NCBI GenBank assembly: GCA_964363165.1
Contig: CAYIHB010000001.1
Location: 1-27,580 of the forward strand
DNA from: an uncultured Candidatus Saccharibacteria bacterium
GTDB lineage: Bacteria > Patescibacteriota > Minisyncoccia > Phycocordibacterales > UBA9973
DNA length: 27,580 nt
Reading direction: 5' to 3'
Within the stretch, counting starts at the first letter, position 1. Every line of letters begins with the position of its first letter. The notes beneath the pieces are model-generated. The model saw only the letters and a list, made by a program, of their open reading frames with translations. It was not told the origin of the DNA and ran no database searches. Below, piece after piece: positions 3,764 through 24,493 of this stretch. Position numbers and translations under genes: made by a program.

Positions 3764-5566
3764 ATGAAAATTTCTTACAATTGGCTAAAATGGTATATTC
3801 CGGAAATTCCCAAAACCGAAAAACTGGCGGATATTTTCAACTGCCATCTTTGCGAAGTGGAAAGTGTTGAGAAAAAAACGGACGATATTATTTTTGATTT
3901 GAATATTTTGCCGAACCGGGCCCATGATTTGCTCAGTCACCAAGGTATTGCACGTGAACTTGCCGGCCAGCTCGGTATTGATTTCAAAGATCCTACGGAA
4001 ATGTATAAAATTCCGGAACCGGGATCCACCAACTTGAAAATAGAAATAAAAACGGACAAATGCCGCCGTTATATGGGACGGATTGTCAGAAATGTGAAAG
4101 TCGGATCTTCACCCGATTGGGTAGTAAAGCATCTCGAATCCATAGGGCAAAGAAGCATAAGTAATATTGTGGATGCGACCAATATCGTTATGTACGACTC
4201 CGGACAACCCTGCCATGCTTTCGATCTGGATAAATTAGAAGGCGAGAAAATAATCATCAGACTTGCGAAAGAAGGGGAAATAATGATGACTCTGGATGGG
4301 AAAGAGGTAAAACTTTCATCGGTTGATATGGTAATAGCGGATGAAAAAAATGTTCTAGCGGTCGCCGGAGTCAAGGGAGGCAAAATTGCCGAAGTGAACG
4401 ATAACACAAAAAATATTCTGATAGAAGTGGCGAATTTTGATCCTGTTTCCGTGCGTGGGACTTCAAAAAGATTGGGAATCATAACCGATTCGTCAAAAAG
4501 GTTCGAGAATGATTTGTCTCCCGAACTTTGTTCATACGCGATGAGGGAAATTTCCGGACTTTTGGTGGAATACGGCGGGTTTAAATTTGAAGAAGTAATT
4601 GATGTCTATCCCGGCAAGCAGGAAATAAGTAAACTTTCTTTTTCGGCGGGCAAGATTTCAAAAATTTTGGGTTTAAATGTTTCCGTAAAAGAAATTGAAG
4701 ATATTTTGAAGAGGTATAATTTTAAGTACAAAAATACTGCCAATAAATTTGAAATTACTGTGCCGCCTATGCGCCTTGATTTAACCATAGAGGAAGATAT
4801 GGCCGAAGAAATAGGCAGAATCTTGGGGTACGACAAGATAAAACCCAAAATCCCAAGTATTGATTTCAAACCGAAAGAAAATGAAATCTATTCTAAAATC
4901 GGTCAGGCTAGAAATAAATTGTTGAATGAGGGTTATAGTGAGGTCATGACTTATGCTTTCAGGGACGAAGGGGAAGTGGAAGTTATGGCTTCCGCGTCGG
5001 ATAAGAAATTTTTGAGAACGAATTTAACTGACAGATTGAAAGAGAGCTTAAAATTAAATCAACTTAATGCACCCTTGCTTGAAATGGATGAGATAAAAAT
5101 TTTTGAAATTGGAACGGTATTTAAGAAAGATAAAGAAGAAATAAATGTCGCTTATGGCGACAAAAAGGGAATAAAAGAAATGAGTTTGGATGAATTTTGT
5201 AAAAGTGCCTCGCCTGAGTTTCTGCAGGAAAAGGTCTTGCCTTTAGGGGATTTAAGGCAAGACCTTATAGAGCAGAAGTTCAAAATGTGGTCTATTTACC
5301 CATTTATCGTCCGCGATATTGCCGTCTGGGTGCCAGAAAATGTTTCAAGCAAAGATGTGGAAAAAATAATAAAAGACAATATGGGAGAGCTTGTGGTGCG
5401 AGGTCCGAGACTATTTGACCAGTTCAAAAAAGACGGCAAAAACTCCTATGCTTTCCGGCTTGTTTTTCAGTCTTATGAAAGAACCCTCAAAGACGAGGAA
5501 GTTAATGAAATTATGGTCAAAATAGGCCATAAAATAAGCGAAAATTCAAGCTGGCAAATAAGATAA
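3764..5566 (+). CDS. pheT: Phenylalanine-tRNA ligase beta subunit, compact (600 aa)
   Basis: MKISYNWLK, PNRAHDLLSHQGIARE, B3/4 (ISNIVDATN...GQPCHAFD), B5 (RLDLTIEEDMAEEIGRILGY) and a C-terminal anticodon-binding domain (VRDIAV...SYAFRLVFQ). Confidence 0.95.
   Translation: MKISYNWLKWYIPEIPKTEKLADIFNCHLCEVESVEKKTDDIIFDLNILPNRAHDLLSHQGIARELAGQLGIDFKDPTEMYKIPEPGSTNLKIEIKTDKCRRYMGRIVRNVKVGSSPDWVVKHLESIGQRSISNIVDATNIVMYDSGQPCHAFDLDKLEGEKIIIRLAKEGEIMMTLDGKEVKLSSVDMVIADEKNVLAVAGVKGGKIAEVNDNTKNILIEVANFDPVSVRGTSKRLGIITDSSKRFENDLSPELCSYAMREISGLLVEYGGFKFEEVIDVYPGKQEISKLSFSAGKISKILGLNVSVKEIEDILKRYNFKYKNTANKFEITVPPMRLDLTIEEDMAEEIGRILGYDKIKPKIPSIDFKPKENEIYSKIGQARNKLLNEGYSEVMTYAFRDEGEVEVMASASDKKFLRTNLTDRLKESLKLNQLNAPLLEMDEIKIFEIGTVFKKDKEEINVAYGDKKGIKEMSLDEFCKSASPEFLQEKVLPLGDLRQDLIEQKFKMWSIYPFIVRDIAVWVPENVSSKDVEKIIKDNMGELVVRGPRLFDQFKKDGKNSYAFRLVFQSYERTLKDEEVNEIMVKIGHKISENSSWQIR
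5231..5266. repeat. Intragenic REP-doublet-like inverted repeat in pheT
   Basis: AAGGTCTTGCCTT (5231-5243) and AAGGCAAGACCTT (5254-5266) form a perfect 13-bp IR with a 10-nt spacer. Cores match the RAYT terminal cores at 10 of 11 positions. Confidence 0.75.
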
Positions 5567-19716: not shown

Positions 19717-19758
19717 AAAATAAAAACCGTGATATAGTGATATCACGGTTTTTATTTT
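19717..19758 (+). terminator. 19-bp perfect hairpin (probable intrinsic terminator) abutting the trmD start
   Basis: AAAATAAAAACCGTGATAT-AGTG-ATATCACGGTTTTTATTTT, followed immediately by ATG 19759. Confidence 0.7.
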
Positions 19759-20415
19759 ATGCGTTTTCACATTATTACAATTTTCCCGGATATTTTCAGC
19801 TCATATTTGAATGAGTCCATTATCGGGCGGGCGGTTGAAAACAAGTTTATTTCGGTGAAGTTTTACAACCCTAGAGATTTTGTTAAAGATAAAAATAAAA
19901 ATGGCTACAAACCAGTCGACGATAAGCCCTATGGTGGAGGGCCGGGTATGGTTATGCGGGCGGAACCGGTAATTAAAACCATAGAAAAAGTTTTAAGCAA
20001 AACCAAAGGAAAAACGAAGATAATACTTTTTTCTCCGTCCGGAAAGAAATTTGAAACCGCGTATGCGAAAAAACTGGTTAAACAGAAATATACCGACATC
20101 ATTTTAATTTCCGGAAGATATGAAGGAATTGACGCACGGGTAAAAAAAATATTCAAGACGGAAGACATTTCAATAGGGAATTATGTTTTGACCGGCGGAG
20201 AATTACCAGCCATGGTTTTGATTGATTGTGTTTCCCGCCAGATTCCAGGAGTTTTGGGAAAATACGAATCTTTGGAAGAAAAAAGAGTATCCAGCAGCGA
20301 AGTTTATACCCGTCCGGAAAAATTAGTTTATAAAGGAAAAAGTTATAAAGTTCCTAAAGTCCTGCTTTCCGGCCACCGGGCTAAGATAGAAGAATGGAAG
20401 AAAAGAAAGGCCTAG
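19759..20415 (+). CDS. trmD: tRNA (guanine37-N1)-methyltransferase
   Basis: ITIFP, VDDKPYGGGPGMVM, SGRYEGIDARV, SIGNYVLTGGELPAM, YTRP, VPKVLLSG. Confidence 0.97.
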   Translation: MRFHIITIFPDIFSSYLNESIIGRAVENKFISVKFYNPRDFVKDKNKNGYKPVDDKPYGGGPGMVMRAEPVIKTIEKVLSKTKGKTKIILFSPSGKKFETAYAKKLVKQKYTDIILISGRYEGIDARVKKIFKTEDISIGNYVLTGGELPAMVLIDCVSRQIPGVLGKYESLEEKRVSSSEVYTRPEKLVYKGKSYKVPKVLLSGHRAKIEEWKKRKA

Positions 20416-20432
20416 CTAGTTTTAGCTAGGCC

Positions 20433-20461
20433 TTGCCTAGCTGGAGAGTTTTTGATATCAT
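20433..20461 (+). promoter_or_regulatory. RAYT promoter with its -35 inside the left repeat (TTGCCT-17-TG-A-TATCAT)
   Basis: TTGCCT 20433-20438, TATCAT 20456-20461, ATG 6 nt later. Confidence 0.6.
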
Positions 20462-20467
20462 GAATTT

Positions 20468-21133
20468 ATGTCTATACGAAAAGTGGAATTGGTTTCCTAT
20501 GAATATTATCACGTATATAATCGCGGTAATAGCAAACAAAAGATTTTTCTTGACAAAAAAGATTATTTGCGTTTTATAGGTCTCTTATATGCCTGCAACC
20601 AAAAAGATAGTTTGAAAATTGGTAATTTAAATAAAGGGCAAACTCTATTTGATATTGAACGCAAAGAATCATTGGTCAGCATTGGTGCATATTGTCTAAT
20701 GCCCAATCATTTTCATTTATTAATCACTCAATCTGGAGACGATAACATAAGCAATTTTATGCAAAAATTAAGTACAGCATATTGTATGTATTTTAATAAA
20801 AAATACAAAAGGGCCGGTAGTTTATTTGAAGGAAAATTTAAAGCACAGCATCTAAATACAGATCGCTATCTTAAATATTTACTTTCATACATTCATTTAA
20901 ATCCAGTAAAACTTACACAAAAGGACTGGAAAGAAAAGGGGGTTAAAAACGAAAAAGAGGCAGTTGAATATTTGCATAAATATCCTTATTCGAGTTTTTT
21001 AGATTATATAAATACAACAAGAATAGAAGGTAAAATATTAGACAAAAAACCATTCCCAAGATATTTTCGAGACACTAAGTCTTTTTTGTCAGAGATTTTT
21101 GAATGGTTAAGTTATAATGATGCCCTTAGCTAG
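20468..21133 (+). CDS. REP-associated tyrosine transposase (RAYT, IS200-like Y1/HUH)
   Basis: YYHVYNRGN, AYCLMPNHFHLL (HUH), FMQKLSTAYCMYFNKKYKRAGSLFEGKFK, YIHLNP, YPYSS. The stop codon lies inside the right repeat; the gene is visibly AT-rich. Confidence 0.9.
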   Translation: MSIRKVELVSYEYYHVYNRGNSKQKIFLDKKDYLRFIGLLYACNQKDSLKIGNLNKGQTLFDIERKESLVSIGAYCLMPNHFHLLITQSGDDNISNFMQKLSTAYCMYFNKKYKRAGSLFEGKFKAQHLNTDRYLKYLLSYIHLNPVKLTQKDWKEKGVKNEKEAVEYLHKYPYSSFLDYINTTRIEGKILDKKPFPRYFRDTKSFLSEIFEWLSYNDALS

Positions 21134-21152
21134 GCAAGGCCTAGATAGGTCT

Positions 21153-21242
21153 GTTCTGAAGGTTCTGCTTTCCGGGGATCACAAAAAAATAGAGGAGTGG
21201 AAAAAAACTAACCCCGGTGATTTGACAAAAAATAGGATATGA
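21153..21242 (+). pseudogene. Second, diverged copy of the trmD 3' end
   Basis: Reads VLKVLLSGDHKKIEEWKK versus VPKVLLSGHRAKIEEWKK at 20350-20403; 38/54 nt identical by hand count, with a shared core CTGCTTTCCGG. Confidence 0.85.
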
Positions 21243-21249
21243 GTATACT
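21222..21249 (+). promoter_or_regulatory. rpoBC promoter (TTGACA-16-TATACT)
   Basis: Consensus -35 at 21222-21227 and -10 at 21244-21249. Confidence 0.75.
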
Positions 21250-21325: not shown

Positions 21326-24300
21326 ATGCTAACAGAAAAGCGTCCGAAGAAATATTTTTCCAAGTACAAGGATCCTCTGATAAAATTTCCGAATCTGATA
21401 GAAGCTCAGACCAAATCTTTCAAGTGGTTGGTGGAAGAAGGGGTCAAGGAAGTCTTTAAAGAATTTTCTCCGATTATCGATTATTCCGGAAAAAAATTCG
21501 AGCTTGAGTTCTCGTCCTTTTCACTGAGCGAACCGAATTGCGAAGAAAATGATGCGAAAATAAATAAACTTTCGTATCAAGGCCTCCTAAAGACCCGGGT
21601 AAAACTGACCAATAGAATTTTGGGTACTGTTAAAGAGCAGGAGATTTTCATGTCGGAGTTTCCTTTGATGACTCCGCACGGAACCTTTATTATAAATGGT
21701 GTGGAACGCACTATCGTGCCACAACTTGCCAGGAGTTTCGGGGTCTTTTTTACTGAATCGGAAAACAAAGGAAAAAGATATTTCGGCGCGAAAATTATTC
21801 CGGCTCGCGGAGTTTGGATTGAAATAGAATCGGAATCCGACGGGGCAATTTACGTGAGAATAGATAAGAAAAGAAAATTTCCCGTTACCGCGCTGCTCCG
21901 CGTTATGGGTTATAACACCAATGAATCCATATTAAAAGCATTTGAAAAAGTTCCTGCTTATAAAGAAACTATTGAATCTTGTTTGGCTAAGGATATAGCC
22001 AAGACACTAAATGACGCATATGTTGAGATATACAAACGTTTGAGAGATGGCGATATGGCAACAGCCGAAAATGCCAAGGAATTTATTAATTCTTTATTTA
22101 CCCCGGAGAGGTACGACCTTTCTCCGGTCGGACGGTATAGATTTAATAAGCGTTTTGAAAAAGGATTAAATGAGGAAGAACTCACTCGCCGAACTATCTC
22201 CAAGGAAGATCTGATGACGGTAATCGCAAATATTATCCTTTTAAATAACACCCCCGGTGCCAAATCCGATGACATAGACCACTTGGGTCAGCGACGCGTT
22301 CGACTTGTCGGAGAAATGCTTCAACAAAAAGTACGAACCGGCATGATGCAGATTAAAAGAAATATACAGGACAGAATGTCCATTATTGATGTTAACACCG
22401 CAATGCCGATCCACATAATAAACCAGCGCCCACTGCAAGCCCGCATCAAAGAATTTTTCACTACTAACCAACTCTCGCAATTCATGGCGCAAGAAAATGT
22501 ACTTTGTGAAATGGAACATCTGCGCACTCTTTCGGCTCTTGGTCCCGGAGGACTCACTCGTGAAAGAGCGGGACTGGAAGTTCGAGATGTGCATCCTTCC
22601 CACTATGGGAGAGCTTGCCCCATTCATACTCCGGAAGGCCCGAACATCGGGCTTATCCTTCATCTTTCCACCTACGCCAAGATAAATGATTTTGGAATTA
22701 TTGAAACTCCTTATATAAAAGTAAAAAACGGCAAAATTACCGGGGAGGTACAATATTTGAACGCTCTGGAAGAAGAAAAATATAATATTGCGCATGCCGG
22801 GATTTCTTACGATGAAAATGGAAAAATAACGGAAGAAAAGGTGGCAGCCAGGCTAAAGACCAATCCGGGCATGATTCATCGTGAAGAAGTCGATTTCATA
22901 GATGTTGCCGCCAATCAAGGTTTTTCCATAGCAACTTCCATGATTCCTTTCCTGGAACATAACGATGCCAACCGCGCGCTTATGGGGTCCAACATGCAGA
23001 AACAAGCCGTGCCTTGCGTGCTTCCCGAGGCGCCCTTGGTTGCGACGGGCATTGAAATGCTCGCCTCTCGCGATACCGGAAGAATGGTTATTGCCTTGGA
23101 AGACGGCGTTGTTTCTTATTTGGACGCGAAAAAAATAACAGTAAAAGGAAAATCCGAAAAAACTTACTTTCTTGTCAATTTTTTGAGAAATAATAATTTT
23201 TCCGTATTTCATCAGCGTCCCGCGGTTTCTGTCGGTCAGAAAGTAAAAAAAGGGGAAATCTTGGCTGATACGACAAGCACGGTAGACGGACAAATTTCAA
23301 TTGGGCAGAATGTTTTTATAGCTTTCTTGTCTTGGTCCGGATCGAACTATGAAGATGCGATAATTATTTCCGAGCGGCTTGTGAAAAAGAGCAAGTTTAC
23401 CTCCGTTTACGTTGAAGAGTTCGTTTGTACGGTTCGTGACACCAAGCTTGGACCTGAAATTACCACCCGCGACATACCGAATGTCGGAGAATTAAAACTG
23501 AAAGATTTGGACGAAGACGGCATCGTGCGTATTGGAGCCGAAGTCAGGGAAAATGATATTTTAATCGGCAAAATTACGCCAAAGGGCGAAACCGAACTGA
23601 CCCCGGAAGAAAGGTTGCTTCGTTCGATTTTTGCCGAGAAAGCGCGCGATGTCAAAGACACGTCGCTCCGTATGGAACATGGCAAGCGCGGACGCATTAT
23701 CGGGATTAAAATTTTCTCTCGTGATCTAGGTCATACTCTTGAAGCGGGGATTATTAAAAAGATTGTAATTGAAGTTGCTCAGGTCAGAAATATTTCAGTC
23801 GGAGACAAACTTTCCGGACGACACGGGAATAAAGGGGTCATTTCAAGAATTCTTCCAGAAGAGGACATGCCTTATACGGCGGATGGCACGCCGGTTGATA
23901 TAATACTTTCCCCATTGGGTGTTCCTTCCCGTATGAACCTGGGGCAAATTTTGGAAATGCATCTGGGCATGGCGGCCAATACATTGGGCTATCAAGCTGT
24001 CGTTCCTCCATTTTTAGGCGCAAGTCACGAAGAAATAAGAGAGGAATTAAAAAAGGCCGGATTTCCGGAAAATGGTAAATTAAAACTTTTTGACGGACGA
24101 ACGGGGGAGCCTTTCGACCAGGATGTTGCCGTTGGATACATGTACATCCTGAAACTCCATCACATGGTGGAAGACAAGATTCATATGCGTTCCATCGGAC
24201 CTTACTCGCTTATTACCCAGCAACCTTTGGGGGGAAAGGCTCAAGGTGGAGGACAGAGATTCGGAGAGATGGAAGTCTGGGCCTTGGAAGGATACGGCGC

Positions 24301-24493
24301 GGCCTATACCTTGCGGGAAATGCTGACTATTAAATCCGATGACATTCTGGGTCGATCTGCCACCTTTGATTCTATTATTAAAAATGAAATCATTAAACCG
24401 CCGAATTCTCCGGCATCATTCAATGTTTTGCTTAATTATTTACGGGGACTCGCGCTTGATGTTAACTTGAAAAAATATGAAAACTTTAAATAA
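21326..24493 (+). CDS. rpoB: RNA polymerase beta subunit (compact, 1055 aa)
   Basis: DDIDHLGQRR, QLSQFM, SALGPGGL, RDVHPSHYGRACP, ANRALMGSNMQKQAVP, GDKLSGRHGNKGV, GQRFGEMEVWALE. Confidence 0.98.
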   Translation: MLTEKRPKKYFSKYKDPLIKFPNLIEAQTKSFKWLVEEGVKEVFKEFSPIIDYSGKKFELEFSSFSLSEPNCEENDAKINKLSYQGLLKTRVKLTNRILGTVKEQEIFMSEFPLMTPHGTFIINGVERTIVPQLARSFGVFFTESENKGKRYFGAKIIPARGVWIEIESESDGAIYVRIDKKRKFPVTALLRVMGYNTNESILKAFEKVPAYKETIESCLAKDIAKTLNDAYVEIYKRLRDGDMATAENAKEFINSLFTPERYDLSPVGRYRFNKRFEKGLNEEELTRRTISKEDLMTVIANIILLNNTPGAKSDDIDHLGQRRVRLVGEMLQQKVRTGMMQIKRNIQDRMSIIDVNTAMPIHIINQRPLQARIKEFFTTNQLSQFMAQENVLCEMEHLRTLSALGPGGLTRERAGLEVRDVHPSHYGRACPIHTPEGPNIGLILHLSTYAKINDFGIIETPYIKVKNGKITGEVQYLNALEEEKYNIAHAGISYDENGKITEEKVAARLKTNPGMIHREEVDFIDVAANQGFSIATSMIPFLEHNDANRALMGSNMQKQAVPCVLPEAPLVATGIEMLASRDTGRMVIALEDGVVSYLDAKKITVKGKSEKTYFLVNFLRNNNFSVFHQRPAVSVGQKVKKGEILADTTSTVDGQISIGQNVFIAFLSWSGSNYEDAIIISERLVKKSKFTSVYVEEFVCTVRDTKLGPEITTRDIPNVGELKLKDLDEDGIVRIGAEVRENDILIGKITPKGETELTPEERLLRSIFAEKARDVKDTSLRMEHGKRGRIIGIKIFSRDLGHTLEAGIIKKIVIEVAQVRNISVGDKLSGRHGNKGVISRILPEEDMPYTADGTPVDIILSPLGVPSRMNLGQILEMHLGMAANTLGYQAVVPPFLGASHEEIREELKKAGFPENGKLKLFDGRTGEPFDQDVAVGYMYILKLHHMVEDKIHMRSIGPYSLITQQPLGGKAQGGGQRFGEMEVWALEGYGAAYTLREMLTIKSDDILGRSATFDSIIKNEIIKPPNSPASFNVLLNYLRGLALDVNLKKYENFK

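Follow-up and report, generated by a model that had tools for sequence, protein, structure and literature searches.

In an uncultured Candidatus Saccharibacteria bacterium, the essential single-copy gene trmD has had its 3' end displaced by that of another lineage, and the displaced end persists downstream as an orphan relic. The locus lies in a 27,580-nt stretch (the window; contig CAYIHB010000001.1 of assembly GCA_964363165.1) from a 512-kb genome, here G000; all other G-, L- and P-numbers denote comparison genomes, loci and proteins. Between the two trmD ends sits a cassette composed of a gene for a REP-associated tyrosine transposase (RAYT) and two inverted repetitive extragenic palindromic (REP) hairpins, and the orphan is followed by rpoB. 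Displacement of a 3' end with an orphan relic is an event of a known kind, found here in an essential gene of a Candidate Phyla Radiation (CPR) bacterium. Judging from comparative sequence data, we consider it probable that a single event of homology-facilitated illegitimate recombination (HFIR), with one homologous and one illegitimate end, produced the arrangement. This reading is carried by the mosaic structure of trmD, by the linkage of an HR-type trmD tail to this type of RAYT in another organism, by the fact that orphan and rpoB promoter are both native, and by the recurrence of the layout with other cargo.

The trmD gene (19759-20415, plus strand; Pfam tRNA_m1G_MT, E=4.5e-41) ends in a tail whose last 18 codons (20350-20403) are repeated at 21153-21206, with 38 of 54 nt and 14 of 18 aa identical. 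The pair ranks first in a search for direct repeats (55 nt, 71% identity; expressed copy at 20350-20404). The downstream copy, the orphan (21153-21242, plus strand), comprises the last ~29 codons of the resident trmD (VLKVLLSGDHKKIEEWKKTNPGDLTKNRI and a stop); its frame remains open until a TGA at 21240-21242 and reads ...KKTNPGDLTKNRI before that stop. A six-frame scan of the whole genome with a profile built from 30 native trmD tails recovered the orphan at E=2e-9, with the next match at E=0.49, and Pfam profile positions 164-185 are common to the orphan and the true trmD end. The orphan carries a P-to-L exchange at an otherwise invariant position.

The original prediction had described two diverged trmD alleles at these coordinates with the same count of identical nucleotides, and its numbers hold, as does its view that this is no target-site duplication. 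Long target-site or tandem duplication in place, followed by divergence, would explain why direct repeats flank an insert, but the two copies are 70% identical, and their differences fall 2/3/11 on codon positions 1/2/3 (seven codons differ synonymously and four non-synonymously). Over 11 such pairs from the genus the corresponding counts are 37/20/116 (chi-square p=2e-20). A freely decaying copy would not spare codon positions 1 and 2, and duplication in place is extremely unlikely. This predominance of third-position differences indicates that both tails of a pair diverged as working genes in separate lineages. Two further points of the prediction stand in part. An 11-nt core is indeed present in both copies, and joining the copies there keeps the frame, but the same string is found in the native tails of many relatives, which makes it merely a common codon choice for LLSG with no special role. 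At the site where the tails read HR or DH, the orphan is nearer to the consensus, as had been claimed (NH in 94, DH in 12 and HR in 3 of the 118 nearest TrmDs), yet HR is the only native tail in some other lineages.

The foreign sequence probably extends well into the body of trmD. RNase R and rpoB (1-500) place G000 with G158, G006, G010, G143 and G191, at 79-86% and 89-95% identity, respectively. Over trmD aa 1-197 these five genomes share 82-91% mutual identity, whereas G000 is just 73-76% identical to them and is nearest to G129 (78%). In a nucleotide sliding window, identity is clade-like to ~19920 and donor-like from ~20000, with a switch of the nearest relative. At sites that separate the consensus of the clade from that of the donor group, G000 sides with the clade 7:1 up to 19923 and 10:25 from 20015, and the breakpoint given by the maximum chi-square (9.46; permutation p=0.022) falls between 19923 and 20015. 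A tree built on aa 1-65 leaves G000 within the clade (approximately unbiased (AU) test, p=0.60). In the tree of aa 66-197 it stands beside G005, G135 and G129, and the AU test rejects clade membership (dlnL 75, p=0.0034) for this partition, whose boundary (aa 65/66) was picked after the sliding-window result was known. Protein segment identities to 119 TrmD homologues showed no clear mosaic, and the signal emerged only when RNase R and rpoB had been used to delimit the clade. We accordingly describe the gene as a resident, clade-like 5' part that would have served as homologous anchor (19759-19923), an interval holding the putative left crossover (19924-20014), and a probably imported 3' part (20015-20415) with the expressed tail ...SGHRAKIEEWKKRKA, all on the plus strand. 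The foreign tract would start ~330-430 nt upstream of the tail, inside trmD, and measure ~1.2 kb in all. The prediction had offered homology-assisted recombination with a foreign allele as one of two options; the mosaic trmD supports it as the better one, and the extent of the foreign tract does not fit a replacement of the tail only.

The order trmD then rpoB is conserved throughout the taxonomic order, and the DNA behind the cassette identifies which tail is resident. The orphan and the spacer downstream of it align contiguously with the native trmD end, the spacer and the sequence upstream of rpoB in G015. The region's strongest promoter match (TTGACA-16 nt-TATACT, 11/12; 21222-21249, plus strand), 77 nt before the rpoB start, lies inside the open frame of the orphan, so that the resident trmD frame passed through the rpoB -35 box into the -10 box (...LTKNRI and a stop; window 21207-21249). 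In G015 (L007) and P0049 the coding end likewise overlaps the promoter of the neighbour. The rpoB promoter and leader occur as two types, one shared by G000 with G006, G158 and G191, the other found in G129, G210, G013 and G135. Since the orphan is contiguous with sequence homologous to the native end of G015 and runs in frame into a promoter and leader of the clade type, we take it to be the relic of the resident trmD. rpoB (21326-24493, plus strand) is itself resident by its place in a starred seven-row clade of the rpoB tree, made up of G000, G158, G143, G010, G006, G191 and G015. A mirror-image model, in which the orphan and rpoB were imported and anchored in rpoB, was rejected, the foreign tract being bounded on both sides by clade-type DNA.

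The relatives of the RAYT point to the same source as those of the foreign part of trmD. The nearest RAYT among 5.8 billion proteins searched is P0122 (81% identity), encoded directly behind a trmD that ends in SGHRAKIEEWKKRK and a stop, with the same REP next to it. The best match to the G000 trmD end (87%) is formed by the last 53 aa of this adjacent trmD, and no orphan lies behind the right REP of the P0122 locus. Within the genus, the four nearest RAYTs (G129, 78%; G210, 74%; G158, 73%; G008, 68%) are all located upstream of rpoB in the same interval and have the same inverted REP flanks. trmD is upstream on the same contig in G129, G210 and G158 (the contig of G008 ends before trmD), and it reads into the left REP in G129 and G158. 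Altogether 11 of the 12 nearest RAYT homologues examined occupy the trmD-rpoB interval. The affinity of the G000 RAYT to L094 (contig k141_2892699 of ENA ERZ27247850), L095 and G129 is kept over all four quarters of the protein. A right-hand crossover inside the RAYT was rejected on this ground, and since no part of the protein departs from the donor type, the imported DNA should extend to the right REP or beyond it. These comparisons suggest that the REP-RAYT-REP cassette came from the same lineage as the foreign part of trmD. Two contigs with an HR tail (P0088 and P0014) were discarded as donors: they encode the same peptide, but their synonymous sites differ and they have neither REP nor RAYT. 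No sequence homologous to the right joint, AGGTCT, was found in trmD or behind the right REP of G129, G210, G158 and L094.

Orphan tails recur across the genus. The tail profile was run over 212 genomes of the genus, a set that includes three unpublished ones (G098, G099 and G100) on which no specific claim rests. In 13 of the 212, one contig bears an intact trmD and, farther downstream, a second trmD 3' fragment. About 6% of the species-level genomes thus keep an orphan tail, and at most one orphan was seen per genome. The cargo between the copies includes PemK/Phd toxin-antitoxin pairs, PaaX-like genes with inverted repeats of their own, an APH phosphotransferase between REPs, a sigma-70-like gene, a major facilitator superfamily (MFS) transporter and several unknown open reading frames (ORFs). 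In the window, the RAYT ORF and its two REPs fill the space between the tails, and in G150 just a 45-nt hairpin does. A Pfam scan of 14 main cargo ORFs from 10 other orphan loci found no recombinase; six of these ORFs had no match at all, and the G196 cargo and the smaller ORFs were outside the scan. The orphans start at varying points between trmD aa 92 and 205 (92, 173, ~175, 191-198 and 205, with most within codons 189-198), and orphan and expressed copies are 65-100% identical across loci. Besides the P-to-L exchange in G000, early decay is seen as a stop in G117 and a frameshift in G058. The orphans of G000, G057 and G191 abut the rpoB promoter, while older cargo lies behind others and points to stacking. 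A metagenomic contig (L096; RAYT 76% identical) has the same layout as the window, namely trmD, REP-RAYT-REP, orphan and rpoB promoter. Its junction is three codons from that of G000 and its orphan is 70% identical to that of G000 by manual count; we read it as an independent event.

The cassette itself overlaps the end of trmD. Its left REP is a doublet (20407-20442; dG -13.1 kcal/mol, z -3.5) in which a hairpin at 20407-20434 overlaps another at 20424-20442 (AGCTAGGC-CTT-GCCTAGCT), and the trmD stop TAG (20413-20415, plus strand) lies inside it. The RAYT-like Y1 HUH transposase gene (20468-21133, plus strand; 221 aa) has its stop inside the right REP (21128-21146; AGCTAGGC-AAG-GCCTAGAT), which is inverted relative to the left REP, the two being 95% complementary. 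As a stable hairpin by itself the right REP was rejected (weak fold, z -1.0). The protein contains the Y1 HUH domain (Pfam PF01797, Y1_Tnp, 35.3 bits; cut-off 23), and its translation shows the RAYT motifs HFH (aa 81-83; 20708-20716) and YIHLNP (aa 141-146; 20888-20905). Its match to NCBIfam NF047646 (REP_Tyr_transpos), at 49.5 bits, is under the equivalog cut-off of 80. The REP with AGCTAGG arms has three further copies in the genome, on contigs C4, C7 and C26 (5 in total), out of 21 REP cores in the 512 kb. A second RAYT gene in G000 (contig C11:7492-8145), with one in-frame TAA, is 59% identical to the first at the amino acid level and has its own REP type (GTTAGG arms), recurring on C3, C5, C27, C35 and C38. 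The RAYT family occurs in 157 of the 212 genus genomes, and a genome smaller than 1 Mb can have as many as 14 diverged copies. In the loci surveyed (27, L013 and L053-L081) the REPs share a GG(C/T)CTTGCC core, and the stem around it is a different variant for each RAYT. Inverted REP flanks were present at all 26 other RAYT loci, none of which (0/26) had duplicated flanks beyond the REPs.

By domain, motifs, inverted REPs and dispersed REP copies the gene is RAYT-like, but with a sub-equivalog score and in a multi-copy family. It resembles the described REP/RAYT systems and their REPINs (PMC3116915, PMC5581495) in the Y1 HUH protein with HUH and Tyr motifs, in the inverted REP flanks, in the scatter of the same REP type through the genome, and in a position that is syntenic across species. 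It differs from them in its score, its few REPs, its multi-copy diverged family and its role as passenger cargo of recombination. RAYTs are typically present in one copy per genome and vertically inherited (PMC5581495). G000 has two diverged copies and its relatives up to 14, and the trmD-rpoB group is bound to its locus in 11 of 12 cases. Solo REP hairpins without a RAYT overlap or adjoin the trmD stop in G021 (L008) and G001 (L025), and in G001 the REP provides the last trmD residues and the stop. Elsewhere in the window, a REP-like inverted doublet (5229-5266; AAGGTCTTGCCTT, 10 nt, AAGGCAAGACCTT) whose core is one base off the RAYT REP core lies, apparently in frame, inside a 600-aa ORF (3764-5566).

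The RAYT had been proposed as the vehicle of the event. In that case a RAYT transposon with a captured trmD tail at its left end would have inserted at matching conserved trmD sequence and replaced the tail automatically. In favour of this, the orphan adjoins the right REP, L096 shows the same layout with an orphan start three codons away, and HUH enzymes of the IS200/IS605 type select target sites matching their left flank. A true IS200/IS605 transposon was rejected, since the G000 copies are merely 59% identical and the hairpins are inverted rather than in the same orientation; inverted flanking REPs are as in domesticated RAYTs and unlike IS200/IS605 ends. Against a transposon in general, the foreign tract reaches far upstream of the tail, the junction nucleotides differ between loci, and 12 other genomes have the same duplication with other or no cargo. 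No duplicated flank was seen at the other RAYT loci, and the nearest homologues, located almost without exception between trmD and rpoB, look locus-resident rather than mobile. We regard the RAYT as a vehicle as decidedly improbable.

The preferred reading, HFIR in a single event, can be set out as follows. The ancestor, Nomurabacteria-like, would have had a trmD ending in ...SGDHKKIEEWKKTNPGDLTKNRI, its last codons lying over the rpoB promoter, and the donor, another lineage of the genus, a trmD ending in SGHRAKIEEWKKRK with a locus-resident REP-RAYT-REP directly behind it. Incoming DNA would have recombined homologously in the 5' third of trmD, with the crossover at ~19924-20014, and its other end, the outer foot of the right REP, would have been attached without homology to codon ~198 of the resident trmD. 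The right junction (21147-21152) reads REP foot, AGGTCT, orphan, with no homology visible in a comparison with distant relatives only. By the coordinates of the breakpoint and the orphan, ~1.2 kb of donor DNA (trmD aa ~66-218 and the cassette) would have replaced ~390 nt of the resident gene and left the resident tail behind as a non-functional orphan, presumably kept because its loss would damage the rpoB promoter. The clustering of joints just upstream of this promoter could reflect illegitimate joints forming near the end of homology, lethality of events that damage the promoter, and instability of long orphans as direct repeats. G000 encodes ComEC (174.6 bits), DprA (225.9 bits) and RecA (459 bits), a set that would permit DNA uptake and recombination without proving either. 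How the steps followed one another, by what route the DNA came in and why the joint falls at the REP foot are our reconstruction.

Several points weigh against this reading. The start of most orphans within codons 189-198 is more regular than random illegitimate joining predicts, and at five loci (G000, L096, G197, G143 and L102) the REP foot is ~1-6 nt from the orphan or repeat. Some 10 of the 35 informative sites in the supposedly foreign part of trmD still match the clade, the breakpoint statistic is modest at its permutation p of 0.022, and the boundary for the AU test was chosen with the sliding window in view. No donor or empty-site genome closer than ~80% was found (nearest TrmD 82% and nearest RAYT 81% identical), so both junctions are drawn from distant relatives. 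Natural transformation is not known for these bacteria.

Some of these observations would be explained by two steps, in which a REP-bounded cassette inserted at the trmD end and duplicated the 3' end, and a later two-sided homologous recombination overwrote trmD from aa 66 to the end, together with the cassette, by a foreign allele while the older orphan stayed. In L102 (880-1000 and 2690-2760), a perfect 31-nt direct repeat, consisting of the last 5 trmD codons, the stop and 15 nt, flanks REP-APH-REP-RAYT-REP, and G196 has a perfect 29-nt repeat pair. RAYT cassettes are also resident here in the clade members G158, G008 and L096, and the abutting REP feet fit an insertion. But two events are required, the RAYT does not switch to clade affinity toward its 3' end, and orphans occur as well with REP-less cargo or with none (G150). 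Moreover, we know of no REP/RAYT or IS200/IS605 mechanism that makes target duplications of 30-90 nt. On balance a two-step origin seems unlikely. The five REP feet near orphans and the perfect repeat of L102 also suggest a variant in which the right joint is non-random. RAYT nicking or strand transfer at REP hairpins could define the end of the incoming DNA, and REP-bounded modules might then spread between genomes by a hybrid of RecA-dependent homology and HUH activity, with the trmD tail beside the rpoB promoter as a reusable landing pad on which modules stack. REPs are known join-points of rearrangements, but we would give this idea only a small chance.

That the window joins two strains in a chimeric assembly had been named as a possible refutation. 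The source is a metagenome-assembled genome, and the depth of the Logan contigs is slightly unequal (5.9 on the left, 9.1 on the right). Nevertheless, three separate ENA assemblies from one groundwater well run from trmD into the start of the RAYT ORF, and one of the three, a contig of 7.9 kb, spans S16-KH-trmD-RAYT-rpoB with 4 differences in 4517 nt. The left junction is also present on Logan contigs of the likely source run and of one run of a second study, and the right junction on Logan contigs from three samples of one study. The trmD-RAYT-orphan arrangement is not an assembly artefact, and we give a chimera practically no credence.

The same contigs bear on the suggestion that the cassette is excisable and offers two alternative TrmD C-termini, as after site-specific or Campbell-type integration of a circle carrying a trmD 3' fragment. 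An intact gene, cargo and a 5'-truncated copy are the layout of an insertion-duplication, and duplications of 109-950 bp arose in E. coli by single crossovers of circles, which were more frequent than true HFIR (PMC3240628). However, among the Logan contigs of four runs none joins the two copies at the shared core, though such contigs drop rare variants. One low-depth contig (X4), which joins 20360 to 21171, was rejected as an excision product; its 7 joining letters match neither copy, and it is therefore taken to be the uninterrupted trmD of another organism. The limits of the orphans vary, and their defects at invariant positions (P-to-L here, the stop of G117, the frameshift of G058) do not suit alternative C-termini. 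A Campbell crossover near aa 65-85 predicts an orphan of ~150 aa, not 29, and neither integrase nor recombinase was found among the main cargo ORFs, within the limits of the scan given above. Integration of a circle is very unlikely, and the excisable cassette found no support.

Among known systems, the event is closest to HFIR as described in Acinetobacter, Pseudomonas stutzeri, Streptococcus pneumoniae and E. coli conjugation (PMC3240628). In both, foreign DNA is linked to one homologous anchor (here the 5' part of trmD) and recipient DNA beside the anchor is replaced; a second joint lacking homology, typical of HFIR, would be the right one here. Unlike in those cases, the event at this locus is deduced from comparative genomics of an uncultured CPR bacterium and not from experiment. 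Its illegitimate joint lies upstream of the end of homology, so that a short duplication remains, and is located at the foot of a REP hairpin. HFIR has also been proposed for the orphan arrays of V. cholerae type VI secretion system (T6SS), Rhs and contact-dependent inhibition (CDI) loci (PMC5361080). C-terminal displacement in Rhs, CdiA and T6SS effector-immunity genes (PMC5361080 and references there) is alike in that a new 3' end arrives and the old one is pushed downstream as an orphan, recurrently across strains and without an integrase. An intact gene with a 5'-truncated copy of another allele, the mark of such displacement, is what we find in 13 of 212 genomes plus L096. The genes there encode polymorphic toxins, are under diversifying selection and have several orphans in an array, whereas trmD encodes an essential housekeeping methyltransferase with near-identical tail peptides, at most one orphan per genome and cargo unrelated to the gene. 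Integrase islands that rebuild the 3' end of the target gene (tRNA, tmRNA and some protein genes) likewise yield an intact gene with an element-derived end, cargo and a truncated native copy. The trmD loci differ from them: the scan of main cargo ORFs yielded no recombinase, the crossover point is not fixed, and the foreign tract reaches deep into the gene body.

Other features of the interval were observed as well. Upstream of trmD, a terminator-like hairpin with a 19-bp perfect stem and a T run (19717-19758, plus strand) separates the KH-domain gene from the trmD start. Across the genus the trmD-rpoB gap ranges from 94 nt to 3.7 kb (L002-L034, L039 and L040) and holds unrelated cargo, as an accessory-gene hot spot between two essential genes. 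The cargo includes Nudix-like and glyoxalase-like ORFs (recognized by eye), PaaX_M and PemK-like genes (by Pfam or motif), membrane proteins and GC-rich ORFs. In G143 (L047), a GC-rich hairpin of ~33-45 nt (GCATGCCCCGTAG...GGGG) is embedded in frame in trmD immediately ahead of VPKVLLSG; in G150 (L048) it lies at the orphan start, just after the trmD stop. Genes with a PaaX_M domain in the gap are bounded by inverted TTTCCGCATATGCTAGAAT repeats in G058 (L043), G191 (L050), G196 (L051) and L039; these repeats may serve as operators or mark module ends of a second type, and in G191 one of them abuts the orphan. G192 has two full-length trmD genes, on contigs C36 and C18, which may reflect a strain mix or contamination, and in L100 (1186-1962) trmD is split into ORFs of 120 and 75 aa by a frameshift or an assembly error.

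The finding means that in a reduced CPR genome even an essential gene present in single copy has been partly overwritten by alleles of other lineages, with relics that are dated by their sequence, and that accessory genes ride in on such recombination events. The trmD-rpoB junction is a hot spot of the genus, where toxin-antitoxin pairs, PaaX-like genes, a phosphotransferase, transporters, a sigma-like factor and a locus-bound RAYT are found. Orphan footprints of this kind offer a way to count and orient one-sided recombination in uncultured bacteria, and annotators are warned that short in-frame "extra" gene ends are relics and not alternative exons. For REP/RAYT biology, the locus provides a case of a cassette as passenger cargo, together with a hint that REP feet may be preferred joints.

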